A DNA stretch of 27,275 nucleotides, taken from Gemmatimonadales bacterium (GTDB taxonomy: Bacteria; Gemmatimonadota; Gemmatimonadetes; Gemmatimonadales; GWC2-71-9). Below are positions 7,820 to 22,023 of the stretch, one piece after another. The notes below the pieces were generated by a model. That model saw only the letters and a list, made by a program, of their open reading frames with translations, ran no database searches and was not told the origin of the DNA. Location: contig DASYPD010000071.1 of the NCBI GenBank assembly GCA_036007005.1, positions 1-27,275 of the forward strand. Reading direction: 5' to 3'. The first letter of the stretch is position 1. Each line of letters starts with the position of its first letter. The translations under genes and the position numbers were made by a program.

Positions 7820-10135
7820 TCACGGGGCGACCGGCGCCGGCGATCGCAGCTGGTAGTTGGCGGGCGGCTCCGCGCCCAGCAGATTCCGGACGAAATAGTC
7901 CCAGCGGCGGCGGATCATGTAGGGCTCGCCGCCAAAGCCGTGGCCGCGGTTGGGCAGCAGCAGCAGGTCGAAGTCCTTGTTCGCCTTGACCAGCTCGTTC
8001 ACCACCAGCAGGGTGTTGTAGGGTGGGACGTTGGTATCGAGCGTCCCATGCACGATCAGCAACTTGCCCTTGAGGTTGCGGGCAAGATTCTGATTCGCCT
8101 GATTGTCGTAGCTGTCGCCGCCGGCCCCGCGGGTGAGCAGCCCCTGCCACTTCTCTCCCCAGTCGTCCTCGTATTCCCGCTGGTCGTGGTTGCCCGCCTC
8201 TGAGATCGCCACCTTGAAGAAGTCGGGATAGCGCAGGATCGCGTCGGCCGCCGCGTAGCCGCCGCCCGAGTGGCCCCAGATGCCGGTGCGATCGAGGTCG
8301 ATCCAGGGGTACCGCGCGGCGAGCTGCTGCATTCCGGCGACCTGATCGGGGAGCGTGTTATCTCCCATGTTGCCGTAGTAGGCGGCGTGGAACGACTTGG
8401 AGCGCAGCGGCGTGCCCATGCCGTCGAGCTGGACGACGACAAAGCCGAGCTCGGCGAGCGCGCGGTGATCGCTTCGCGTGGGGGAGAAGCTCCGGCTGCC
8501 GACGCTGCCGGTCTGGGGGCCGGGATAGATGTAATTGATGATCGGGTACTTGCGGGTCGAATCGAAATTGCTGGGCCGGTAGAGCAGCCCGTAGAGATCG
8601 GTCCTGCCGTCGCGCGCCTTCACGCTGAAGGGCAGCGGCGGGGTCCAGCCCGTGGCGACGAGCCGCGAGATATCCGCCCGTTCGAGCGCGAGGACCAGCT
8701 TGCCCCGGGCCTCGCGCAGCACGCTGGTGGGCGGCAGCTCCGGACGCGAGTAGCTGTCGGTGAAAAAGCGGCCGTCGGGAGCGAGGGTAATGTCGTGGTC
8801 GGCATCCTCGGGGGTGAGCAGGGTGAGGTGCTTTCCGTCCAGCCCGATGCGGTAGAAGTGGCGGAAGTAAGGGTCCCGTCCCGGCTCGCGGCCTACCCCG
8901 GTGAAGAAGAGAGTGCGGCCCTTCTCGTCCACGCGGGTTAAAGTGAGAACGTTCCAGGCGCCGCTGGTGAGCTGGGCCTTGAGCCGGCCGGTCTGAAGAT
9001 CGTAGAGATAGAGGTGGCCCCAATCGCTGCGCTGCGAATACCAGAGCAGCTCCTGGGTCTCCCAGAGCACGCGCCAGTTCCGGCTGGCGAAGCCCGATTC
9101 GAAGAACGTGGGCACGGTCTCGCTGAAGAGATCGCGCACCGCTCCGGTTTCCGCGTCGGCGATGCGGACGTCGGCACGCTTGTGGTCGCGCGAGGTGGAG
9201 ACGAAAACGAGGCGCGACGCATCCGGGCTCCACTCCACATCGGCGAAGACCCCGTCACAGGACACGTGATCGCAGGTGGTGGAGCGATGCGGGTCCGGTG
9301 GCAGCTGCAGCCGGACGACGCGGGGTGTGGCGCCGCTCAGGTCCAGCACCACGCGGTGAATCATCTGGATGACGCTGTCGCCGGGGAGCGGGTACTTCCA
9401 GGCCTGCAGCGAGGGATGGCCGACCCGGGTCTCCACGACGTACATCTCGCCGACGGCGCGCTCGTCCTGCTGGAACGTCGCGATCTTTCTGGAGTCGGGC
9501 GACCAGAGCAGCACGGGGCGGTCACTCCTGATCCAGCCCGCGTTGTCGGTCGCGTAGCCGAAATCCTTGACGCCGTCGCTGGTGAGCTGGGTCTCCGTGC
9601 CGCTCGGCTCCTCGCGCACCCAGAGGTTCTCGCCGCGGATGAAGGCGGCGCGCTTGCCGTCGGGGGAGAGCACGGAGTTGCGGCCGCCGGGGCTCCGTGC
9701 GGCGGCGACGCCGCTGCAGCGATCGCCGATCACCCCGCAGGTCCAGCGCCGGCCCGCGAGCTCGAAGCTGATGCTCTGCTTGTCGGCGGAGAATTCGAAG
9801 TCGCTGAAGGGAAGTCGCAACGAATCGTACGGGGTTCCCGCCGCGGCAGCGAGCGCTGCAGCGAGTTTCGCCTGGTCGAAGGCCCGGCCGCGGGTGCGCT
9901 GCAGCGGGTCCACCAGCATCAGCGCGGTTCCCCCCGGGATGCTGTTGCGGTACCAGAAGCGGCCGTCGGGCAGCCAGGTGGGACGGAGCGCCATGCCGAA
10001 GACGAGCGGTGCGGTGTTGTAGCCCATGAACTTCTCCGCCCGGGCGTAATCGGCGGCGGTCAACTGGGGACGCTGCTGCGCGGCTGCCGGCGGGGCGGCG
10101 ACGGCGAGCAGCAAGGCGACGGTCAGCGTGCGCAT
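7820..10135 (-). CDS. Secreted S9B-type dipeptidyl peptidase IV-like serine peptidase (propeller plus alpha/beta hydrolase)
   Basis: Signal MRTLTVALLLAVAAPPAAA, YPGP, nucleophile GHSGGG, HGTLD (Asp) and RGHGF (His). Alternative start at 10171. Confidence 0.92.
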   Translation of the reverse strand: MRTLTVALLLAVAAPPAAAQQRPQLTAADYARAEKFMGYNTAPLVFGMALRPTWLPDGRFWYRNSIPGGTALMLVDPLQRTRGRAFDQAKLAAALAAAAGTPYDSLRLPFSDFEFSADKQSISFELAGRRWTCGVIGDRCSGVAAARSPGGRNSVLSPDGKRAAFIRGENLWVREEPSGTETQLTSDGVKDFGYATDNAGWIRSDRPVLLWSPDSRKIATFQQDERAVGEMYVVETRVGHPSLQAWKYPLPGDSVIQMIHRVVLDLSGATPRVVRLQLPPDPHRSTTCDHVSCDGVFADVEWSPDASRLVFVSTSRDHKRADVRIADAETGAVRDLFSETVPTFFESGFASRNWRVLWETQELLWYSQRSDWGHLYLYDLQTGRLKAQLTSGAWNVLTLTRVDEKGRTLFFTGVGREPGRDPYFRHFYRIGLDGKHLTLLTPEDADHDITLAPDGRFFTDSYSRPELPPTSVLREARGKLVLALERADISRLVATGWTPPLPFSVKARDGRTDLYGLLYRPSNFDSTRKYPIINYIYPGPQTGSVGSRSFSPTRSDHRALAELGFVVVQLDGMGTPLRSKSFHAAYYGNMGDNTLPDQVAGMQQLAARYPWIDLDRTGIWGHSGGGYAAADAILRYPDFFKVAISEAGNHDQREYEDDWGEKWQGLLTRGAGGDSYDNQANQNLARNLKGKLLIVHGTLDTNVPPYNTLLVVNELVKANKDFDLLLLPNRGHGFGGEPYMIRRRWDYFVRNLLGAEPPANYQLRSPAPVAP

Positions 10136-10226
10136 GGCAGAGCTCGAGTTCCGGGAGGGGGATGGGGCCATCGAGGGAGCTGAATATGCCGGCGACGGAA
10201 TACGGCGGCAACGGGCGCGAGCCGAT

Positions 10227-10255
10227 TTGAGCGACGGGCCGGGACGCGGTAAGTT
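10227..10255 (+). promoter_or_regulatory. Putative sigma70-type promoter
   Basis: TTGAGC (10227-10232), 17 bp spacer, TAAGTT (10250-10255). It lies upstream of SD GGAGA and the ATG at 10291. Confidence 0.55.
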
Positions 10256-10290
10256 GGCCGGAGACTCACCCTCACCTCACGGAGAACGCC

Positions 10291-10704
10291 ATGCTGGGAA
10301 GCGAGCTGGGTACTTTGCGCGGGAAGGTCACGGGGCAGCGGGTGCTGCCCGCGGAAGGACCGGGTCCTCGAATGGAAGTGTCGTTCGAGCTGAGCGGGAC
10401 GCTGCTGGGGAAGAAGGTGACGATGCTGGGCACCTACTGGTCGCAGGTGCGGCCCGATGGCTCGCTCTACGGCGAGTGTCCCCGACAGGGCGTGCTCATG
10501 ACGCCGGCGGGCGAGATGGGCACGTGGACCGGCGCGGGCGTCGGGCAGTTTACGGGAAAAGGTTCGGCGGTGAGTTACCGGGGAGCGGTGTATTTCACCG
10601 TGGGAGGCAAGTCGCTGGCCCGGCTCGGCAAGATGGCGGTGGTGTACGAGTGGGAGATTGATGAACAGGGCAACGGAGAGGCACGCTTCACCGAGTGGAA
10701 ATAG
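10291..10704 (+). CDS. Conserved hypothetical beta-rich protein, 137 aa
   Basis: Has an SD and a promoter. Alternating beta-strand pattern (GKVTGQRVL, MEVSFELSG, GTYWSQVRPDGSLYG, WTGAGVG, VSYRGAVYF, VVYEWEIDE..EWK). No signal peptide. Confidence 0.8.
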   Translation: MLGSELGTLRGKVTGQRVLPAEGPGPRMEVSFELSGTLLGKKVTMLGTYWSQVRPDGSLYGECPRQGVLMTPAGEMGTWTGAGVGQFTGKGSAVSYRGAVYFTVGGKSLARLGKMAVVYEWEIDEQGNGEARFTEWK

Positions 10705-10713
10705 GAGCTCCCC

Positions 10714-13700
10714 ATGTCGAGTAGTCCCCGATCAATCGTCCTGACCCTGCTCGCCGGCCTCGGAGCTTTCGCGCCGGCCGGGGCGCAACCGGCGGCCCGC
10801 GCGCCGCGCGATCCGATGCAGGAAGGCCTGCCGCTCAAGCCGGCGCGCACGGCCTCGTTCACGACGAAGGTCGGAAGCTGGATGTCGCTGGACGTGAGCC
10901 CCGAGGGGCAGACCCTGGTCTTCGATCTGCTCGGCGATCTCTATACCCTGCCGATCTCGGGAGGAAAGGCGGTGCCGTTCACCCGCGGCATGGCGTTCGA
11001 CGCCCAGCCGAGGTTTTCGCCGGACGGGAAACGGATCGTGTTCGTGAGCGACCGCGATGGCGGCTGGAACGTCTGGACGATTTCGGTGGACAAGAAGGAC
11101 ACGGTGCAGGTTACCCGCGGGAAGACCAACGCCTACGAGTCTCCCGAGTTCACTCCCGACGGCAAGTTCATCGTCGTCACGCGCGGCAACAAGCTGTGGA
11201 TGTTCCATGTGGACGGCGGCCAAGGGCAGCGCATCATTCCGGCCCCGACCGCCGGCGCGGGAGCCGGCGGTCCCGGCGGCGGCAACCCGGCGGATGTGCT
11301 GCGCCAGACCGGCGCCGCGTTCGGTGCCGCGCCGCGCTTCATCTGGTTCGCGCAACGACGGGGCTCGTGGATCTACAACACTCCGATGAGCGACTACGAC
11401 CTGGCGGTGTACGACCGCGAGTCGGGGGAAACCAGCATCCGGGAAAACCGCTGGGGCTCGGCGTTCCGCCCGACGCTCTCGCCCGACGGGCACTGGTTGG
11501 TGTACGGCACGCGGCACCTCGATGAAACCAGGCTCCGGATCCGCGATCTCAAGTCCGGGGACGAGCGCTGGCTGGTCTATCCGGTGCAGCGCGACGATCT
11601 CGAGTCGCGCGCGACGCTCGACGTCTATCCGGGAATGAGCTTCACGCCGGATTCGAAGTCTCTGGTGGCGACCTGGAACGGGAAGCTCTGGAAGGTGCCG
11701 GCAGAGGCGGGTGCCCCCGTCGAGATCCCGTTCGAGGCCGAGGTGGTGCAGGCGCTGGGGCCGCACGTGGCATTCGATTATCGCATCAGCGACTCGGCGA
11801 CCTTCCCGATTAAGCAGATCCGCGACGCGGTGGCGTCGCCGGACGGTAAGCGGCTGGCGTTCGTGGCGCTCGACCGGCTCTACGAGATGAGCTGGCCCAA
11901 CGGCATCCCGAAGCGGATGACGAGCATGGAGGTAGGGGAATACCAGCCCGCTTGGAGTCCGGATGGGCAATGGATCGCCTACACGACGTGGAGCAACACG
12001 GAGGGTGGCTTTCTCTACAGGGTGCGGGGCGACGGAAGCGGCGCGCCGCAGAAGCTCACCACGGCCTCGGCGTTCTGGCAGCAGCCGGTATTTTCGCCGA
12101 CCGGAAGCCGGATCGTCGCGCTGCGCTCACCGGCGCGGTCGTTCCGCGAAGCGCTCGGAGGCGGGGGAGGGGGTGGCTCCCGGGATCTGGTGTGGCTGCC
12201 GGCCGCGGGGGGCGAAGCGGTTTTCATCGCGCCGGCGAGTGGCTTCTCGACCCCGCAATTCACGCACGACTCCACCCGCATCTATGCGTACGGCGGGGGG
12301 CGCGGGCTCCTCTCGATGCGCTGGGACGGGACCGAGGTGAAGAGTCATCTGCGGGTAACTGCTGGGGCGGTTGGGGGCGGTGGTGCTGGGGGCGGAGCCG
12401 CCTCGGCGGTGCTGATCTCGCCCGGCGGTGATGTCGCGCTCGCGCAAGTCAACAATGATCTGTACACGGTGACGATCCCCTGGATGGGGGGAGAGGAGCC
12501 GACCGTCAGCGTGGGAAATCCGGAGGGCGCGACGTTCCCGGTGCGCAAACTGACCGACATCGGAGGACAATTCCCCTCGTGGGGGGCCGACGGCAAGACG
12601 GTGCACTGGTCGATCGGAAACGCCCACGTGGTGTACGATCTCGAGCGGGCACGCGCGTTCGACGATTCGGTGCGGCGCGCTAACCCGCGGCGCGCCGGCG
12701 GGGGAGGAGCCGGTGGCGAGGGCGCGCGTGATACCACGGCCCAGGGCGATTCGGCTGCGCGGGCCGCCCGGCAGGCGCCGCAGTACCAGCCGGTGGAAGC
12801 ACGCATCCACCTCTCCGCCCCGCGGGATATTCCGCAGAGCTCGGCGGTGCTGCGCGGCGCGCGCGTCATCACGATGAAGGGCATGGAAGTCTTGGAGAAT
12901 GCCGACGTGGTGGTGGTGCATAACCGGGTCAGCGCGATCGGGAAGCGGGGCAGCGTCAGGGTGCCGGCCGGAGCGACGGTGATCGAGCTGAGCGGGAAGA
13001 CCATCATTCCCGGGTTTGTGGACACACATGGTCACCTGCGCCTCGCGGCGGGAATTCACCGGCAGCCGGTGTGGAGCTACGTGGCCAACCTGGCCTATGG
13101 CGTCACGACCTCGCGCGATCCGCAGACCGGCACGACCGATGTGCTCACCTACGAAGACGAGGTGAATGCGGGCCAGCTTCTCGGGCCGCGTATCTATTCG
13201 ACAGGGCCGGGGGTCTTTTCGGCGGAGGACATCCGCGACCTCGATCAGGCGCGGAAGGTGCTCAAGCGCTACAGCGACTACTACGACACCCACACCCTCA
13301 AGGAGTACCAGACCGGCAATCGCGAAGTACGCCAGTGGGTGATTCAGGCGGCCAACGAGCTGCACCTGATGCCGACCACCGAAGGCGGGCTCGACATCAA
13401 GATGAACATCACCGAGGCGATCGATGGATACAGCGGCCACGAGCATACGATCCCGACCTTCCCGCTGCAGGCCGATCTGATCCGGCTGCTGGCGGAATCG
13501 GGAATCACCTACACGCCGACCATCATCGTGGCCTACGGAGCTCCCTGGGGCGAAAACTACTGGTACGAGCACGAGGACCTGCTCAACGACGCCAAGCTCA
13601 AGCGGTTCACGCCGTGGAGCGATTTGGAGGAGAAGATCCTGCGGCGCGGCGGCTCGCCCAACGCCGTGACGACGGGGGCGAGCGCCGGCTGGTTCCACGA

Positions 13701-14103
13701 CAGCCAGTACGGGATGAAACTGATCGGAGAATCGATTCGGGACCTGGTCGCCGCGGGTGGCCACGCGGGGATCGGCTCGCACGGCCAATTACAGGGCCTG
13801 GGGTATCACTGGGAGCTCTGGATGGTGGGGATGGGCGGGATGAGTCCCCATGACGCGTTACGGGTCGCCACGATTCTCGGAGCCGAGTCCATCGGGTTAG
13901 GAAAAGACGTCGGATCGCTCGAGCCGGGCAAGCTGGCGGATCTAATCGTGCTGGACCGTAACCCGCTGCAGAACCTGCGGCACACCAGCACGATCCGGTA
14001 TGTGATGAAGAATGGGCGGCTCTACGACGGCAATACGCTGGACGAGGTCTATCCGCGGCGGCAGCAGGCGGAGCCGTTCTATTGGACCGCTGAGGACAAG
14101 TAA
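10714..14103 (+). CDS. Secreted amidohydrolase with N-terminal PD40/TolB-like beta-propellers, 1129 aa
   Basis: Signal peptide ending in AGA. Repeated SPDG/SPEG/TPDG propeller motifs. The amidohydrolase region has IIPGFVDTHGH, AYGVTT and GSLEPGKLADLIVLD. SD AGGAG overlaps the upstream stop. Confidence 0.9.
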   Translation: MSSSPRSIVLTLLAGLGAFAPAGAQPAARAPRDPMQEGLPLKPARTASFTTKVGSWMSLDVSPEGQTLVFDLLGDLYTLPISGGKAVPFTRGMAFDAQPRFSPDGKRIVFVSDRDGGWNVWTISVDKKDTVQVTRGKTNAYESPEFTPDGKFIVVTRGNKLWMFHVDGGQGQRIIPAPTAGAGAGGPGGGNPADVLRQTGAAFGAAPRFIWFAQRRGSWIYNTPMSDYDLAVYDRESGETSIRENRWGSAFRPTLSPDGHWLVYGTRHLDETRLRIRDLKSGDERWLVYPVQRDDLESRATLDVYPGMSFTPDSKSLVATWNGKLWKVPAEAGAPVEIPFEAEVVQALGPHVAFDYRISDSATFPIKQIRDAVASPDGKRLAFVALDRLYEMSWPNGIPKRMTSMEVGEYQPAWSPDGQWIAYTTWSNTEGGFLYRVRGDGSGAPQKLTTASAFWQQPVFSPTGSRIVALRSPARSFREALGGGGGGGSRDLVWLPAAGGEAVFIAPASGFSTPQFTHDSTRIYAYGGGRGLLSMRWDGTEVKSHLRVTAGAVGGGGAGGGAASAVLISPGGDVALAQVNNDLYTVTIPWMGGEEPTVSVGNPEGATFPVRKLTDIGGQFPSWGADGKTVHWSIGNAHVVYDLERARAFDDSVRRANPRRAGGGGAGGEGARDTTAQGDSAARAARQAPQYQPVEARIHLSAPRDIPQSSAVLRGARVITMKGMEVLENADVVVVHNRVSAIGKRGSVRVPAGATVIELSGKTIIPGFVDTHGHLRLAAGIHRQPVWSYVANLAYGVTTSRDPQTGTTDVLTYEDEVNAGQLLGPRIYSTGPGVFSAEDIRDLDQARKVLKRYSDYYDTHTLKEYQTGNREVRQWVIQAANELHLMPTTEGGLDIKMNITEAIDGYSGHEHTIPTFPLQADLIRLLAESGITYTPTIIVAYGAPWGENYWYEHEDLLNDAKLKRFTPWSDLEEKILRRGGSPNAVTTGASAGWFHDSQYGMKLIGESIRDLVAAGGHAGIGSHGQLQGLGYHWELWMVGMGGMSPHDALRVATILGAESIGLGKDVGSLEPGKLADLIVLDRNPLQNLRHTSTIRYVMKNGRLYDGNTLDEVYPRRQQAEPFYWTAEDK

Positions 14104-15054: not shown

Positions 15055-16161
15055 ATGACCCGGTTTGACGTCGGGATTGTGGGCTTGGGCGCGATGGGGA
15101 GTATGGCCGCGCGCGAGCTGGCGGCCCGCGGCAAGCGGGTTATCGGGTTCGATCGCTTCCATCCACCCCACCCCTTCGGCTCCTCTCACGGCAAGAGTCG
15201 CATCATCCGCGAGGCGTACTTCGAGCATCCGCAATACGTGCCGCTGGTCCAGCGGGCCTACGAGTGGTGGGCTCTCCTCGAGCGGCAGAGCGGCCGGAGC
15301 CTGCTCGTTCCCACCGGCGGGCTCATGATCGGCATGCCCGATGGCGCGCTGATCGGTGGCGCACGCCGCAGCGCGCTCGAGCACCGCCTGCCTTACGAGG
15401 AGTTCAGCGCGGCACAGGCGCGCGAGCGGTTTCCCTTGTTTCGGCTGGGGGAAGGCGAAGTGGGTTTGTTCGAGCCTAGAGCCGGCGTGCTGTTTCCCGA
15501 AGCGGCGCTGGAAGCCGCCTTGCAGCTCGCCGAGGCCGCGGGAGCGGAGCTGCATTTCGACGAGCCGGTCACCGCCTGGAGCGCCGGCGAGGGAATCACC
15601 CTGCGGACAGCGGCCCGCCACTGGGGGGTGGACCGGCTGATTCTCTCGGCGGGTGCCTGGCTCGCGAATGGAATCGCGCGCGCGCCGCTGCCGTTGCGCG
15701 TCGCGCGCCAGACCTTGTTCTGGTTCACCCCCGCGTCCGACGCGAGGGGGATCCCCGTGTTCATCTGGGAATGGGCACCGAACCAGCTGTTCTATGGATT
15801 TCCCGATCTGGGCGACGGGGTCAAGGTCGCCATCCATCATCAGGGCGAGGAGACCACTCCGGAGCAGGTGCGGCGCACGGTCTATCCCGACGAGGCCACC
15901 CGCTTGCGCGAGGTCATGGCGACACGGACCCCGCAACTGCTGGGCCCGCTGCGGGACAGCGCGGTCTGTTTGTACACCAACACCCCGGATGGCGATTTTC
16001 TGCTGGACCGCCACCCGGAAGATGGCCGCGTGTTAGTCTGCAGTCCCTGCTCGGGGCACGGCTTCAAGTTCGCCCCCACGATCGGCGAGGTGCTGGCCGA
16101 TCTGGTGGAGGACAAGCCACCGCGGTTCGATCTGTCGCCATTCCGTCTGAGCCGTTTCTAG
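15055..16161 (+). CDS. solA: Monomeric sarcosine oxidase / N-methyl-L-tryptophan oxidase family FAD oxidase
   Basis: GLGAMG Rossmann motif, SSHGKSRIIR, AVCLYT (Cys at the covalent-FAD position in this family) and CSGHGFKF. Confidence 0.88.
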   Translation: MTRFDVGIVGLGAMGSMAARELAARGKRVIGFDRFHPPHPFGSSHGKSRIIREAYFEHPQYVPLVQRAYEWWALLERQSGRSLLVPTGGLMIGMPDGALIGGARRSALEHRLPYEEFSAAQARERFPLFRLGEGEVGLFEPRAGVLFPEAALEAALQLAEAAGAELHFDEPVTAWSAGEGITLRTAARHWGVDRLILSAGAWLANGIARAPLPLRVARQTLFWFTPASDARGIPVFIWEWAPNQLFYGFPDLGDGVKVAIHHQGEETTPEQVRRTVYPDEATRLREVMATRTPQLLGPLRDSAVCLYTNTPDGDFLLDRHPEDGRVLVCSPCSGHGFKFAPTIGEVLADLVEDKPPRFDLSPFRLSRF

Positions 16162-16192
16162 CTAACCTCAGTCCGCCTTCTTCACGAAAGCA

Positions 16193-17110
16193 GTGGGTGC
16201 AAGCGTGGATGAAGCCCTGGACAATTACTCTTCACTTCACCGCCTGCTGAGCGGGGCGATCGACTATGCCGGCCTTTTTCCGCCCGCGGGGTTGGATCTG
16301 GCCACGGCGCTCGCGAATTACCGGGCCTACCGCGGCTCGGCCGACGCCTGGGCACTGGGCCGGTTCGTGGTACCGGCGGCACAATTGAACGAGCTCGAGG
16401 GGCTGCTCCGGGACGGGAACGTCACCGTCGCAGAGCGCTTGCCTCTCACTGTTCTGCTGGGAACCGCCGGGGCGGACGAGGTCAGAGCGATCGAGCATTT
16501 CAATGCCCGGAGCGGCGAGCATGGGGGACGGGTCGAGAGCGTGGAGGTCAAGGCGGCGTCGGACAATGCGGCCCGCGCGGTGCTGGCCGTGCTGCCGGTG
16601 GAATGGAACCGCTATCTCGAGATTTCCCTCGATTCCGCCAGCGAGGCGGTTCTCGAGGCCCTCGCCGCCGGCCGGGCGTTTGCCAAGATCCGCACCGGGG
16701 GCGTCACGCCTGATGCGTTCCCCGAGGTCGACCAGCTGGTGCATTTTCTCCAGGCAGCGGCCCGCCGGAGGCTCGCGTTCAAGGCGACGGCCGGGTTGCA
16801 TCACCCGCTGCGAGGCTGCTACCGGCTCAGCTATGCCGAGGCTGCGCCGCAAGGCGTCATGTATGGCTTTCTGAATCTTTTCCTCGCCGCAACGCTCGCC
16901 TGGGGGGGCGCTGCCGCGGTCCAGCTGCGGGCGGCGCTGCGGGAAGATGACCCGGCGGCGCTGCGGCTCGATCCGGCGGCCCTGCAGTGGCGCGAGCTGC
17001 GGATCGGAGCGACGGCGCTCGCCCAGCTGCGGGAGAACTTCTGCCATAGCTTCGGGTCTTGCTCCTTTCGCGAGCCGCTCGATGAGCTCGCTGCGGGAGG
17101 CTGGACGTGA
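16193..17110 (+). CDS. Conserved hypothetical protein (probable alpha/beta barrel) coupled to fahA
   Basis: Motif-like blocks IDYAGLFPPA, GRFVVP, AKIRTGG, FKATAGLHHPLR, GFLN and SFGSCS..EP. Its stop overlaps the fahA start (GTGA). Start could be GTG 16193 or 16205. Confidence 0.8.
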   Translation: MGASVDEALDNYSSLHRLLSGAIDYAGLFPPAGLDLATALANYRAYRGSADAWALGRFVVPAAQLNELEGLLRDGNVTVAERLPLTVLLGTAGADEVRAIEHFNARSGEHGGRVESVEVKAASDNAARAVLAVLPVEWNRYLEISLDSASEAVLEALAAGRAFAKIRTGGVTPDAFPEVDQLVHFLQAAARRRLAFKATAGLHHPLRGCYRLSYAEAAPQGVMYGFLNLFLAATLAWGGAAAVQLRAALREDDPAALRLDPAALQWRELRIGATALAQLRENFCHSFGSCSFREPLDELAAGGWT

Positions 17111-18420
17111 GACCGGGGCTCGACCAGACGCACACCTTGGAGCTCGCGTCGTGGGTGAACTCGGCGCGGCAGGCGGCGACCGATTTCCCGCTCCAGAACC
17201 TTCCGTTGGGCGTGTTCCGCCCGGCGGGTCGGGCGCCGCGGATCGGCGTGGCGATCGGCGAGCACATCCTCGACCTTCAGCGCACAGTGCAGGTTGGCGG
17301 GTTAGGCCCGCTCGAGCCCTCGCTGCGCGGCGCGGCCCTGGCGCCGACGCTGAATCCGCTCTTTGCGCTGGGACGCACCGCGGTGACGGCACTCCGGCAC
17401 GCGGTGCACGCCTTGCTGCGGGAAGACTCCGCGCTGCCGCGTCCGCCCGAGGAGTGCCTGGTCGCGATGAGCGGCGCGGAGCTCCTGTTGCCCGCCGACA
17501 TCGGCGACTACACGGATTTCTATGCCTCGATTCACCACGCGATGAATGTCGGCAGCATGTTCCGGCCCGAGCAGCCCCTGCTGCCGAACTACAAATGGGT
17601 GCCGATCGGTTATCATGGCCGGACGTCCTCGATCGTTCCCAGCGGCCGCGCGATCCGCCGGCCTCGCGGGCAGCTCAAGGAGGACGCGGCGCCCGCGCCG
17701 GTGCTGCAGCCGACGGAGGCGCTCGATTACGAGTGCGAGCTTGGCCTCTGGGTGGGGCAGGGTAACCTGCTGGGCACCCCGGTCCCGATCGAGGCTGCCG
17801 AAACCCATCTGATCGGGCTCTGCTTGCTCAACGACTGGTCCGCGCGCGACGTGCAGCGCTGGGAGTATCAGCCCCTCGGCCCGTTTCTGTCCAAGAATTT
17901 CGCGACCAGCATCTCGCCCTGGGTCGTGACCCTCGATGCGCTGGAGCCGTTCCGGGTGGCCGCCGCGACGCGTCCCGAGGGAGATCCCGCACCGCTCCCC
18001 TATCTGCTCGACCAGCGCGACCAGGAGCGTGGGGCGATTGCCGTGGAGCTCGAGGTCTGGCTGCGCTCCGAACCCATGCGCACGATGGGCTGCGAGCCGG
18101 TGTGTCTCAGCCGCTCGCGCGCCGCTGAGCTCTACTGGACGCCGGCCCAGCTCGTCACCCATCACGCCAGCAACGGCTGTAATCTTCGGCCCGGAGATTT
18201 GCTGGCGAGCGGAACGGTGTCGGGACCGGCGCGCGAAAACCGCGGCTGTCTCCTGGAGCTGACTTGGCGCGGCCGTGACCCGCTCGAGCTGCCGAGCGGG
18301 GAAACCCGTCGCTTTCTCGAGGACGGCGACGAAGTAGTGCTGCGCGGCTTCTGCCGGCGAGCAGGCTTTGCGACCATCGGATTCGGAGAATGTCGGGGGG
18401 TGGTCCTTCCCGCGCGATGA
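17107..18420 (+). CDS. fahA: Fumarylacetoacetase
   Basis: FPLQNLPLGVF, GDYTDFYASIHHA, IGYHGRTSSIV, LDYECELG, NDWSARDVQRWEYQPLGPFLSK and GDLLASGTVSG. Confidence 0.95.
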   Translation: MRPGLDQTHTLELASWVNSARQAATDFPLQNLPLGVFRPAGRAPRIGVAIGEHILDLQRTVQVGGLGPLEPSLRGAALAPTLNPLFALGRTAVTALRHAVHALLREDSALPRPPEECLVAMSGAELLLPADIGDYTDFYASIHHAMNVGSMFRPEQPLLPNYKWVPIGYHGRTSSIVPSGRAIRRPRGQLKEDAAPAPVLQPTEALDYECELGLWVGQGNLLGTPVPIEAAETHLIGLCLLNDWSARDVQRWEYQPLGPFLSKNFATSISPWVVTLDALEPFRVAAATRPEGDPAPLPYLLDQRDQERGAIAVELEVWLRSEPMRTMGCEPVCLSRSRAAELYWTPAQLVTHHASNGCNLRPGDLLASGTVSGPARENRGCLLELTWRGRDPLELPSGETRRFLEDGDEVVLRGFCRRAGFATIGFGECRGVVLPAR

Positions 18421-18974
18421 GGACTCTCGTCCGCACCACGCACCTCGAAATGTTGTCGCGCTCCAGCTTGCGACCCGCGCTCACGCTCCCGGCCGACCTG
18501 CTGCTGCTGCGGGCGGGCATCCCCTCTCCTGAGCTTGGGCGCTTCCTGTATACTGCGGTGGGCGGCGACTGGTATTGGCGCGAGCGACTGAGCTGGAGCT
18601 ACCCCCGCTGGCTGACCTGGCTGTCGCGCCCCGAAATCGAAACCTGGATGGCTCTGGAAAGCGGCACCCCCGCGGGCTATTTCGAGCTCGAAGCGCAATC
18701 GGAAGGCAGCGTCGAAATCACCTACTTCGGGCTGCTGCCACAATTTGCGGGGAAGGGAATCGGCGGCTACCTGCTGACCCAAGCGGTCGATCGCGCCTGG
18801 CAGCTGCGGCCCTCGATCCGGCGCGTGTGGGTGCACACCTGTAGCCTCGACCACTCCCGCGCCCTGCCGAACTACCTGGCGCGCGGTTTCACGATATTCA
18901 AGGAGGAGGAATACCAGGTCGAGCTTCCCGGCGAGCCGCCGGGTCCCTGGCCCGGCGCGGAGCGGCCGCGATGA
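18417..18974 (+). CDS. GNAT family N-acetyltransferase, 185 aa
   Basis: Motif A FGLLPQFAGKGIGGYLL and motif B VWVHTCSLDH..AL.NY..RGF. ATG at 18417 overlaps the fahA stop. Confidence 0.88.
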   Translation: MRTLVRTTHLEMLSRSSLRPALTLPADLLLLRAGIPSPELGRFLYTAVGGDWYWRERLSWSYPRWLTWLSRPEIETWMALESGTPAGYFELEAQSEGSVEITYFGLLPQFAGKGIGGYLLTQAVDRAWQLRPSIRRVWVHTCSLDHSRALPNYLARGFTIFKEEEYQVELPGEPPGPWPGAERPR

Positions 18975-19606
18975 ATCTCGCGGAGCTGCGGCGCGACTAT
19001 GCCCGCGCCGTTCTCGATGAGAGTTCGGCCGAGGCCGACCCGTTGCAGCAACTGCGCCGCTGGCTGAACGACGCGGCGGACGCCCAGGTGGCCGAGCCGA
19101 GCGCTATGACGCTCGCGACCGCGACGCGAGAAGGGCGGCCCAGCGCGCGCATCGTGCTGCTCAAAGGCCTGGACGAGCGAGGACTGGTGTTTTTTACCGA
19201 CTCGCGCAGCAGAAAGGGGGAGGAGCTGGCGCAGAATCCCCTGGCCGCGCTGGTATTCTGGTGGTGCGAGCTCGAGCGGCAGGTGCGGGTTAGCGGCACT
19301 GTCACGCGGATCGCCGAAACGGAGTCCGAGGCGTACTATCGTTCGCGTCCCCTCGGCAGCCGGCTGAGCGCCTGGGCCTCGCATCAGAGCCAGGTGGTCT
19401 CCGGCCGCGCGGCGCTCGAAGCCCAATGGGAGGCGCTCTCGCGACGCCACGCCGCCGAAGCCGTGCCCAAGCCGCCGTACTGGGGCGGCTACCGCGTGCA
19501 GGCCGACGAATACGAATTCTGGCAGGGCCGCCCGAACCGGTTGCACGACCGGCTGCGCTATCGGAAAGGCACGGATGGCTGGCTTGTCGAAAGGTTGAGT
19601 CCGTAA
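18971..19606 (+). CDS. pdxH: Pyridoxine/pyridoxamine 5'-phosphate oxidase
   Basis: RRDY, AMTLATA, PSARIVLLKG, SRKG, RQVRV, SRPLGSRLSAWAS, YWGGY and EFWQGRPNRLHDR. Confidence 0.96.
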   Translation: MNLAELRRDYARAVLDESSAEADPLQQLRRWLNDAADAQVAEPSAMTLATATREGRPSARIVLLKGLDERGLVFFTDSRSRKGEELAQNPLAALVFWWCELERQVRVSGTVTRIAETESEAYYRSRPLGSRLSAWASHQSQVVSGRAALEAQWEALSRRHAAEAVPKPPYWGGYRVQADEYEFWQGRPNRLHDRLRYRKGTDGWLVERLSP

Positions 19607-22023
19607 TGGCACCCTTCGTCGTTGCGCGGGCCGCAGTCCGGGAAGTCATTGCGAGGGCCGCAGGCCCGAAGCAATCCCAAGCGCTTTGCGCCGTCGCGAT
19701 CCTGGGCGGCGTGCTGGCGCTTCCTGCTGCGGCCCAGACGAAGTTCGCACTGGAGGTTCCCACTATCATGCGCGGCCCCGAGAATACCGGCCGCGAGCCG
19801 TCCGCTGTCCGCTGGTCTCCCGATGGGCAGTGGATCTCTTTCCGTTGGCTGCCGCCTGGCGCGGACTGGCGCGAGACGCTGAAGCCCTATCGGATCCGGG
19901 CCGTGGCGGGCGCCGCACCGGAGCGGCTGACGCAGGCTCAAGCTGACTCGCTCGAGCCGCTGTTCGCCAGTGGGGCGCTCGCCCCGGACCGCAGGCTCCG
20001 GGTCGTGTCGGTGCGGGGAGACCTCTATCTCGTTGAGCTGCCCTCCGGCCAGCTGCGCCGGTTGACCAGCACCCCGGGCGTCAGCGAGACCGATCCCCGC
20101 TTCGACCGCGAAGGCCGCCGGGTCTTCTTTCGCAGGGACAACAACAGCTTTGCGCTGGACATCGTCCAGGGCGGCGTGCAACAGCTCACCGACATTCGCA
20201 CCGGGCCCGGACCGGAGGAGCCCAAGCGCGCCGAAGGCCAGCGCGCCTTCGTGGAGGCGGAGCAGCGCGCGCTATTGGGCGCGGTGCGCGACCGCCGGAT
20301 GCGCGACAGTCTCGATAAGGCGGAGCGAGAAGCCCGGGATGCCGCACAGCCCAAGGCCTTCTATCTCGCGAGCGGCGAGCAGGTACGAGAGCTTTCCCCT
20401 TCGCCGAGCGGCGAAGCGGTGCTCGTTCAGCTGGTGACGCCGACGCCGAGTGCGCGAACGGCACAGGTGCCGAACTACGTCACGCTGTCGGGGTACACCG
20501 AAGAGATCGCCTCGCGCACCAAGGTCGGAGACCTGCAGAGCCGGACCCGTCTCGGCCTCTTCTCGGTCTCCAGCGGCGCGGTGCGCTGGATCCAGCCGCT
20601 CGCCCCTGACAGCAGCGGCACGTATGCCCAGCTCAGCGTGGCCGGCTGGAACGATCGCGGCAACTCTGCGCTGCTCTTCGCGTGGAATCGCAGCTTCACC
20701 GAGCGGCGGCTGGTGCGGGTGGATGCGGATTCGGCGCGGGTAACCCCGCTCGACGTGCAACGCGATACCGCGTGGGTCGGCGGCCCCTGCGCCGCGCCCT
20801 GCGACGGCGTCGGAGGCTGGCTTCCGGGCGACGGCGGCGTCTGGCTCGTGAGCGAGGCGGACGGGTACGCGCACCTCTACACGATGAGCGCCGACGGGAG
20901 CAACCGCCACCAGCTAACCCGCGGGAAATGGGAAGTCCTCGACGCCGAGCTGCTGCCCGACCGCTCCGCCTGGCTGCTGCACACCAGCGAAGTGTCGCCC
21001 TATGAGCGCCACGCGTATCTGCTCCCGCTGGCGGATCGCGCGACTCCCCGACCTCCTGACCGCCTGACCGCCGACGTCGGCGGCCACACCGTCACCCTGA
21101 GCCCCGACGGCCGGCAGCTGGTCGACCTCGCTTCCTCCGCCAACCGGCCGCCCGAGCTCTTTCTGCAGGCGACGCGGGCCGGCGCTCCGCGTGGCCAGCT
21201 CACCAGCTCAGCGACCGCCGCGTGGCTGAGCTTCCCCTGGATCAAGCCCGAAATCATCGGGATCCCCGCCTCGGACGGCGTTCAAGTTCCCGCCCGCATC
21301 TATCGCCCCGCGGAGCTTGGCGCGCGGCCGAACGGCGCGGCGGTCATCTTCGTGCACGGGGCGGGTTGCCTGCACAATGTGCACAATTACTGGTCCACCT
21401 ATTTCCGGGAATACCAGTTCAACCAGCTGCTGGCCTCGAAGGGCTATGTCGTGCTCGACCTCGACTACCGCGGCTCAACCGGGTACGGACGGGACTGGCG
21501 GCTCGCGAACTACCGCCACATGGGTGGCCGGGATCTGCAGGACCAGGTGGATGCGGTGCGCTGGCTGCAGAAGACCCATGGCATCTCACCCGACCGGGTC
21601 GGCATCTACGGCGGCAGCTACGGTGGCTTCATCACTTTGATGGCGCTCTTCACCGAGCCCAAGTGGTTTGGTGCCGGCGCCGCTTTGCGCCCCGTGACCG
21701 ACTGGGCCCACTACAATCACCCGTACACCGCGGAGATTCTGAACGAGCCCCAGGAAGATTCGCTTGCCTACCGTCAATCGTCGCCCATCTACTTCGCTCA
21801 GGGCCTCGAGGATCCCCTGCTCATCCTCCACGGGATGGTGGATGTCAACGTCCATTTCCAGGATGTCGTCCGGCTCACCCAGCGGCTGATCGAGCTCGGC
21901 AAGACCGACTGGCAGCTCGCGGTGTATCCCGTGGAGGACCACGGGTTCATTCGGCCCGATTCGTGGACCGACGAATACCGCCGGATCCTCGAGCTCTTTG
22001 AGCGGTGGCTCAAGCCGAAGTGA
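19606..22023 (+). CDS. Secreted S9 family serine peptidase (propeller plus alpha/beta hydrolase), 805 aa
   Basis: TAATG coupling to pdxH, signal peptide ending in PAAA, LDYRGS.GYGRD, GGSYGG, HGMVD and EDHGF. Confidence 0.92.
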   Translation: MAPFVVARAAVREVIARAAGPKQSQALCAVAILGGVLALPAAAQTKFALEVPTIMRGPENTGREPSAVRWSPDGQWISFRWLPPGADWRETLKPYRIRAVAGAAPERLTQAQADSLEPLFASGALAPDRRLRVVSVRGDLYLVELPSGQLRRLTSTPGVSETDPRFDREGRRVFFRRDNNSFALDIVQGGVQQLTDIRTGPGPEEPKRAEGQRAFVEAEQRALLGAVRDRRMRDSLDKAEREARDAAQPKAFYLASGEQVRELSPSPSGEAVLVQLVTPTPSARTAQVPNYVTLSGYTEEIASRTKVGDLQSRTRLGLFSVSSGAVRWIQPLAPDSSGTYAQLSVAGWNDRGNSALLFAWNRSFTERRLVRVDADSARVTPLDVQRDTAWVGGPCAAPCDGVGGWLPGDGGVWLVSEADGYAHLYTMSADGSNRHQLTRGKWEVLDAELLPDRSAWLLHTSEVSPYERHAYLLPLADRATPRPPDRLTADVGGHTVTLSPDGRQLVDLASSANRPPELFLQATRAGAPRGQLTSSATAAWLSFPWIKPEIIGIPASDGVQVPARIYRPAELGARPNGAAVIFVHGAGCLHNVHNYWSTYFREYQFNQLLASKGYVVLDLDYRGSTGYGRDWRLANYRHMGGRDLQDQVDAVRWLQKTHGISPDRVGIYGGSYGGFITLMALFTEPKWFGAGAALRPVTDWAHYNHPYTAEILNEPQEDSLAYRQSSPIYFAQGLEDPLLILHGMVDVNVHFQDVVRLTQRLIELGKTDWQLAVYPVEDHGFIRPDSWTDEYRRILELFERWLKPK
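19618..19700 (+). repeat. Degenerate REP-like element lying in frame inside the S9 peptidase signal peptide
   Basis: GTCATTGCGA (19645-19654) and GAAGCAATCC (19668-19677) are identical to the 6792 element. 19681-19700 matches 6839-6858 at 17 of 20 positions. An imperfect 27-bp tandem unit precedes it at 19618-19644. Confidence 0.75.

Follow-up and report, generated by a model that had tools for sequence, protein, structure and literature searches.

We report that the gene directly upstream of fahA in a 27,275-nucleotide stretch of DNA from a Gemmatimonadales bacterium (the window; the gene is called X below) almost certainly belongs to the homogentisate pathway, and that its product, a predicted DERA-like TIM-barrel enzyme, is probably a non-GST maleylacetoacetate isomerase (EC 5.2.1.2 reaction) acting between HmgA and FahA in bacteria without MaiA. 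In the usual route, maleylacetoacetate is converted to fumarylacetoacetate by the glutathione-dependent isomerase MaiA. Membership of the pathway rests on gene order, gene fusions and co-occurrence. We infer the reaction by elimination, since the aminotransferase, HppD, HmgA, FahA and acetoacetate activation each have a gene of their own in the same operons.

A preliminary description of the window had put forward a 305-aa reading frame with distinct motif blocks and a stop codon overlapping the start of fahA, all of which we verified (Table 1). The four motif blocks named there are present in the translation, and the TGA stop of X (17108-17110) overlaps the GTG start of fahA at 17107 by 4 nt (GTGA). 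The true start of X is probably the GTG at 16205, giving a protein of 301 aa, because the Atlas record opens at residue 5 and P0002, at 95% identity, also has a length of 301 aa. Within the window alone the 4-nt overlap is weak evidence of a functional link, as fahA and the GNAT gene, and the GNAT gene and pdxH, overlap likewise. It does count, however, since it is conserved across loci: of 70 loci scored with start codons chosen by a heuristic, 40 have a spacing of -4 between X and fahA, and in 62 the spacing stays within 30 bp. A scan of promoters and terminators gave a signal no better than chance.

Table 1. Coordinates of X, its predicted active-site codons and the adjoining genes in the window.
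Feature	Position	Strand	Details
Gene X, DERA-like TIM-barrel enzyme, candidate non-GST maleylacetoacetate isomerase	16193..17110	+	305 codons
GGGAGG ribosome site for fahA (17095-17100, inside the end of X) and GTGA stop/start overlap	17095..17110	+	
D24, barrel strand 1, at the position of the DERA strand-1 aspartate	16262..16264	+	259/266; invariant in deep alignment
E118, strand 4, at the position of the DERA proton-relay aspartate (E. coli D102)	16544..16546	+	264 E and 2 D of 266
K165 (KxRTGG), strand 6, predicted Schiff-base lysine, equivalent to DERA K167	16685..16687	+	265/266; DERA KTSTG lysine via alignment A4
K197 (FKATAGLHH), strand 7, predicted pKa-lowering lysine, equivalent to DERA K201	16781..16783	+	266/266; aligned by hhalign
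C290 (SFGSCS), just past strand 8, predicted nucleophile	17060..17062	+	265/266, the other a gap; invariant including Actinomycetota and Bacillota
fahA, long-type fumarylacetoacetase	17107..18420	+	TIGR01266, 522 bits (cut-off 375); PF09298 and PF01557
solA-like FAD amine oxidase, upstream of X	15055..16161	+	NF008425, 416 bits
GNAT acetyltransferase and pdxH, coupled 3' of fahA	18417..19606	+	lineage-specific neighbours

The label of uncharacterised protein given to X in the preliminary description is apt. Neither the single protein nor profiles matched anything in Pfam, NCBIfam or the sequences of the PDB, or any named Atlas cluster, and a literature search, with most subscription journals outside its reach, found no paper describing the family. 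A profile search recovered 5,698 clusters at 50% identity, with members in Gemmatimonadota, Acidobacteriota, Cyanobacteriota, Bacteroidota, Planctomycetota, Bacillota and Actinomycetota. Across these seven phyla, nine polar residues are invariant in a deep alignment (D24, E118, E143, K165, R167, K197, H203, N228 and C290), and among 266 closer homologues E143, R167, K197, T199 and H203 are invariant, with K165 and C290 present in 265. The family is thus real, widespread and unannotated, and its conservation pattern, as read from the alignments, is enzyme-like.

The survey of gene neighbourhoods bore out the earlier statement that the family is often found beside hmgA or fahA, and the absence of enrichment that had been named as evidence against the proposal was not seen. 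We found fahA within 8 kb of X in 77 of 81 loci, contig ends explaining three of the four exceptions, and hmgA in 24 of the same loci, mostly directly upstream; hppD (15 loci), a class IV aminotransferase gene (6) and an acyl-CoA synthetase gene (6) were also present. Acidobacteriota and Actinomycetota repeatedly show the order hmgA-X-fahA, which distant members (~30% identity) keep in Rhodococcus, Tsukamurella, Streptomyces and Pseudonocardia, with CoA transferase subunits following in Streptomyces, while a Priestia cluster reads hppD-X-fahA-aminotransferase-hmgA. In addition, there are fusions that join X to FahA (6 clusters) or to acetoacetyl-CoA synthetase (AACS; 14 clusters), and most of them keep its motifs. 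Two of these lie in full operons, hppD-hmgA-aminotransferase-AACS::X-fahA-phhA and hppD-hmgA-X::fahA. The operon with AACS::X holds a gene for each step from phenylalanine to acetoacetyl-CoA, that of the isomerase alone excepted, and its Sphingobium counterpart (phhA-hppD-hmgA-fahA-maiA) is without X. Two copies of X depart from the usual arrangement: one (L061, 7977-8894) does not adjoin fahA, hmgA being elsewhere in its genome, and for the other (L153:1498-2430, genome G105), in which the last motif is degenerate, no hmgA or fahA was found in the genome.

The fusions also bear on two readings in which X would not be an isomerase. As a C-C hydrolase or retro-aldolase it would convert maleylacetoacetate to maleate and acetoacetate via a Schiff base, bypassing isomerisation, which we consider quite improbable. 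In its favour, an aldolase fold naturally breaks C-C bonds, X is found fused to AACS, and direct hydrolysis was reportedly described by Crawford in 1976 in a Bacillus strain; but a tightly coupled or fused long FahA would then be redundant, and fahA lies 3' of AACS::X in both of the fusions examined. Moreover, no maleate-processing gene was recognised among the recurring neighbours in annotated clusters, and the short FahA of X-negative clusters appears the likelier direct hydrolase. Alternatively, X could act downstream on acetoacetate, for instance as a Schiff-base acetoacetate decarboxylase. The Schiff-base lysine chemistry of acetoacetate decarboxylase is established, such a lysine suits the decarboxylation of a beta-keto acid, and the AACS fusion again counts in favour. 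Such an activity would, however, compete with the acetoacetyl-CoA synthetase-like ligases or CoA transferases of the same operons, which conserve acetoacetate, and it would leave the isomerase step empty, so that we regard this reading as very improbable.

Some further arrangements were recorded along with these loci. In Gemmatimonadaceae, X-fahA is flanked by a SET-domain gene (18 loci, e.g. L007:5344-5943) and by an unannotated gene of ~165 aa (12 loci, e.g. L037:6993-7490); we regard the SET-domain gene as a lineage-specific neighbour. Three single long proteins, P0189, P0280 and P0289, join X to unrelated domains (CAAX protease-like, PF00361 and PF10459), possibly as read-through or gene-calling artefacts. 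On the Rhodococcus rhodochrous plasmid pNit (L178:2657-8109), hmgA-X-fahA is divergent from genes for an FAD monooxygenase and an MFS transporter, a layout that suggests entry of a non-tyrosine aromatic compound into homogentisate.

Within the window there is no hmgA, hppD or maiA, as the preliminary description correctly stated. Another contig (C389) of the source genome, however, has hppD directly next to a short-type hmgA. The assembly of this genome is 74% complete and also contains an acyl-CoA-synthetase homologue on C195, a single fahA and its own deoC. The homogentisate pathway is therefore present in this genome, though split, with hppD-hmgA on C389 and fahA beside X. A search with PF04209 (HgmA_C) had indicated that hmgA was missing from the source genome and from its phylum, a result that was overturned when the short-type HmgA was found; since PF04209 misses this type (L111:5492-6655, on C389 of the source genome, G000), Pfam-based profiling wrongly scores the pathway as absent in the window's phylum. 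The surroundings of X-fahA in the window (15055-19606) form a coupled run with the solA-like amine oxidase, GNAT and pdxH genes, an arrangement common to close relatives only. The solA-like gene adjoins X in 5 of the 81 loci, all in close relatives, and lies outside the conserved unit, and pdxH is near X in 11. Nearby, at 7820-14103 and 19426-22023, the window encodes two S9/DPP-IV peptidases and a 1129-aa PD40-amidohydrolase protein, consistent with the use of peptides.

Profiling against hmgA and fahA, which had been proposed as a check, pointed in the same direction as gene order. Among 41 genomes of the window's phylum, which are related and not independent observations and to which we attach no p-value, X, HmgA and FahA occur in an identical set of 13. 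These are scattered within families, and 11 of them have hmgA at a site not linked to X. In this panel we detected neither maiA, nor any GST-like match to the maiA model, nor gshB (0/41 for each). A panel of 61 genomes from a second phylum gave HmgA in eight of nine X-positive genomes and maiA in none. In Bacteroidota, a long FahA is present in all seven X-positive genomes, and the five of these that were tested all have HmgA and no maiA. Among the panel genomes searched for it, X-positive or X-negative, none had a maiA over the cut-off, Pseudomonadota lying outside the panels; the regular co-occurrence with maiA that would speak against the proposal was thus not seen in the X-positive genomes searched. 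For plasmids, X was found on 24 records, none from Pseudomonadota, whereas Pseudomonadota account for at least 189 of the 251 records with fahA, although the records are very redundant (130 of those with fahA come from Ralstonia) and the check for maiA covers Sphingobium only.

The link to glutathione-lacking bacteria that had been suggested for X holds in part. It agrees with the lack of gshB matches in the window's phylum, but Chlorogloeopsis carries X-fahA and hmgA even though gshB and several GSTs are present in it; a maiA over the cut-off was not detected there. For this reason, 'non-GST' is a safer label for X than one that restricts it to bacteria lacking glutathione.

The same profiles show that X is tied to the homogentisate pathway, yet that the pathway does not always depend on X or MaiA. 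Seven genomes of the second panel have HmgA and no X. Six of them have a short FahA, four of these with a flavin-reductase-like gene beside hmgA, and the seventh (G096), in which no maiA was found, has a long fahA with a DinB-superfamily gene directly after it. Likewise, 8 of 15 Bacteroidota genomes with a long FahA are without X, and of five tested none had maiA and four had HmgA. Genomes with HmgA and a long FahA that have neither X nor maiA weaken the argument by elimination, suggesting either that a further isomerase exists or that the step runs without a dedicated enzyme. They also lend some weight to a reading in which X is a damage-control or accessory enzyme. In that role it would either clear a reactive side product, such as maleylacetone, succinylacetoacetate or a thiol adduct of fumarylacetoacetate, or help FahA, and isomerisation would fall to something else or to free thiols acting non-enzymatically. 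In agreement with this, X is linked most tightly to FahA and not to HmgA. A repair enzyme should, however, serve beside MaiA as well, whereas the fahA plasmids of Pseudomonadota yielded no X and the X-positive genomes searched yielded no maiA over the cut-off; in several phyla, moreover, it is X that stands between hmgA and fahA. We therefore consider an accessory role unlikely.

Three features of the X-negative clusters may be of interest in their own right. The gene after the long fahA of G096 (L174:2778-3284) matches DinB_2 with 46.8 bits and is followed by a CoA transferase gene, and a DinB-type protein may fill the isomerase slot in that genome. Flavin-reductase-like genes lie beside hmgA or fahA at L167:2271-3014, L169:472-1092, L170/L171:2338-2958, L201:54-875, L207:350-1243 and L143:2339-2953, mostly in X-negative genomes and in one X-positive genome, with PF01613 confirmed for those of L143, L167, L169 and L201; they are candidates either for a second occupant of the isomerase slot or for pterin recycling for PhhA. 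Finally, a short FahA (~320 aa, without PF09298) is frequent in these clusters (L167, L169-L172) and might hydrolyse maleylacetoacetate directly.

The AlphaFold model of X (pLDDT 93.7) is a (beta/alpha)8 TIM barrel in which ~80 additional residues follow strand 7, ahead of strand 8. The matches returned by Foldseek were generic TIM barrels only. An exhaustive VIA search placed DERAs at ranks 1-5 and 8 (Z 14.0 to 12.3), the top five, all DERAs, having Z 14.0 to 12.8 and rmsd 3.4 to 4.1 over 191 to 216 residues and the best of them Z 14.0 and rmsd 3.7 with 207 residues aligned; other TIM barrels reached Z 11-12.6, so the lead of DERA is modest. We then compared the model strand by strand with a folded model of a DERA from the same phylum. 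In this comparison D8, D89, E128, K153, K182 and G205 of DERA correspond to D24, E118, E143, K165, K197 and G288 of X (strands 1, 4, end of 5, 6, 7 and 8, respectively), and K165 and its counterpart are both the third residue of strand 6. C290 sits two residues after G288, a position that we take to be that of the phosphate-pocket serine of DERA (E. coli numbering), and not at the position of DERA C47. In E. coli DERA, K167 is the Schiff-base lysine, K201 its pKa-lowering partner and D102 the relay acid (PMC6016325); by motif these are K153, K182 and D89 of the folded DERA, which lie opposite K165, K197 and E118 of X in the strand comparison.

By sequence the link to DERA is weak, profile comparison with hhalign giving a probability of 26-34% (E about 4e-4 to 7e-4). 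The divergent alignment A4 brought both lysine pairs, K165/K153 and K197/K182, into register (E 4e-4, probability 34%), whereas the narrower alignment A2 had strand 7 alone in register, a merged alignment also missed K165, and strand 4 (E118) was left out of register. As A4 alone aligned K165, the register with DERA rests mainly on the order of strands in the two models. The check by structure prediction and Foldseek thus points to a class-I-aldolase-like TIM barrel, which we do not count against the isomerase reading, and such a barrel, as modelled, would fit the roles proposed for the Lys and Cys residues that had been singled out as catalytic candidates.

DERA is the best structural match of X, with residues that strand order places as equivalent on strands 1, 4, 5, 6, 7 and 8, both lysines included. 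The two nevertheless share only 10-17% identity, X has no DeoC profile match, and no DERA is among its PDB sequence matches. X has Glu in place of the strand-4 Asp and Cys in place of the phosphate-binding Ser, does not keep the strand-5 Lys or strand-2 Cys of DERA, and differs from it by the insertion between strands 7 and 8. Its sequence thus sets X apart from DERA, and its context, namely tyrosine catabolism and a separate deoC in the genome, points the same way. We also rejected transaldolase, the automatic name of the Atlas cluster and the top Foldseek row. X, as modelled, and transaldolase are both class I aldolase-type TIM barrels, but the match had a TM of 0.33 and an rmsd of about 15, and TAL_FSA was not matched. 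Transaldolases carry their Schiff-base lysine on strand 4, where K120 of X varies (Lys in 183 and Arg in 73 of 266 homologues) and is not present in Actinomycetota. Among 145 X members, none matched GST, DeoC, DinB or TAL_FSA models.

Maleylacetoacetate has a ketone conjugated to a cis double bond, and by analogy with DERA we can outline how X might isomerise it. K165, made nucleophilic by K197 and E118, would form an iminium with the C4 ketone beside the cis double bond and so activate that bond. The C1 carboxylate of the substrate would lie in the former phosphate pocket (G201/H203 and G288-S291), placing C290 near the beta carbon. Reversible addition of C290 at C2 would permit rotation about C2-C3, after which the thiol would leave and hydrolysis would free fumarylacetoacetate for the coupled FahA, a protein cysteine thereby taking over the job of glutathione. 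If X is the isomerase, the case for this combination of a K165 iminium and reversible C290 addition seems to us about evenly balanced. Each half of it has support on the DERA scaffold, since K167 of DERA forms a Schiff base with crotonaldehyde, an enal, that then undergoes Michael addition by a cysteine (PMC6016325), and since DERA can be evolved to iminium-type Michael catalysis (PMC8576802).

The isomerase assignment also accommodates other chemistry, which we regard as possible but distinctly less than likely, and which takes its share of the probability given to the isomerase itself. X could use a free thiol as co-substrate (cysteine, mycothiol, bacillithiol or CoA), a metal held by D24, E118, E143 and H203, or an iminium or dienamine without a Cys adduct. 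To our knowledge, the characterised maleyl-ketoacid isomerases all use a free thiol, and the acidic residues and H203 of X are conserved to the same degree as its lysines. The mycothiol-dependent maleylpyruvate isomerase NCgl2918 of C. glutamicum, a non-GST isomerase of a maleyl ketoacid, is a case in point (PMC4360819). Actinomycetota have mycothiol and Bacillota bacillithiol (PMC4360819), and the active site of X is identical whether the lineage is of the glutathione, mycothiol or bacillithiol type, and also in a phylum where gshB was not found, which argues against any one specific thiol. The lysines on strands 6 and 7, being the DERA signature, also speak against this set of alternatives. 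Like the NCgl2918 type, X is predicted to carry out a non-GST cis-trans isomerisation of a maleyl ketoacid without glutathione; that type, however, needs a free thiol and acts on maleylpyruvate in the gentisate pathway, whereas X has no DinB match and is a predicted TIM barrel. We take NCgl2918-type isomerases to have a helical DinB-like fold, and the BagL/NagL type to be cysteine-dependent.

The closest functional counterpart of X is the zeta-class GST family MaiA/HmgC/GSTZ1 (TIGR01262), for which the predicted reaction and the place in Phe/Tyr operons are the same. The two probably share the logic of reversible thiol addition and bond rotation. They have no sequence match, MaiA having the thioredoxin-like and helical GST fold and X a TIM barrel, and X is predicted to use its own Lys and Cys where MaiA uses glutathione; they were not found together in the genomes searched. 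In Gram-positive bacteria, Hagedorn and Chapman are said to have described in 1985 a glutathione-independent maleylacetoacetate isomerase activity, and we know of no gene that has been assigned to it. X occupies the isomerase slot in clusters of Gram-positive Rhodococcus, Streptomyces, Tsukamurella, Pseudonocardia and Priestia, and we hypothesise that it is the enzyme behind that activity. More broadly, and tentatively, at somewhat below even chances, a cofactor-free isomerase derived from a DERA-like class I aldolase, with a Lys Schiff base and a Cys replacing glutathione, would be the principal means by which bacteria of many phyla carry out this step, and the activity reportedly seen in Gram-positive bacteria would be a case of it.

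If X is the isomerase, a hole would be closed in core amino-acid catabolism for Acidobacteriota, Gemmatimonadota, Actinomycetota and parts of Bacillota, Bacteroidota, Cyanobacteriota and Planctomycetota, and a name would be given to a family of more than 5,000 clusters (50% identity) that none of the profile libraries searched covers. Maleyl-to-fumaryl isomerisation would also gain a further fold, unrelated to those of the GST and DinB types. Should the mechanism prove right as well, X would be a natural case of iminium-activated cis-trans isomerisation on an aldolase scaffold, a chemistry reported for DERA either as a suicide side reaction or in variants obtained by directed evolution.
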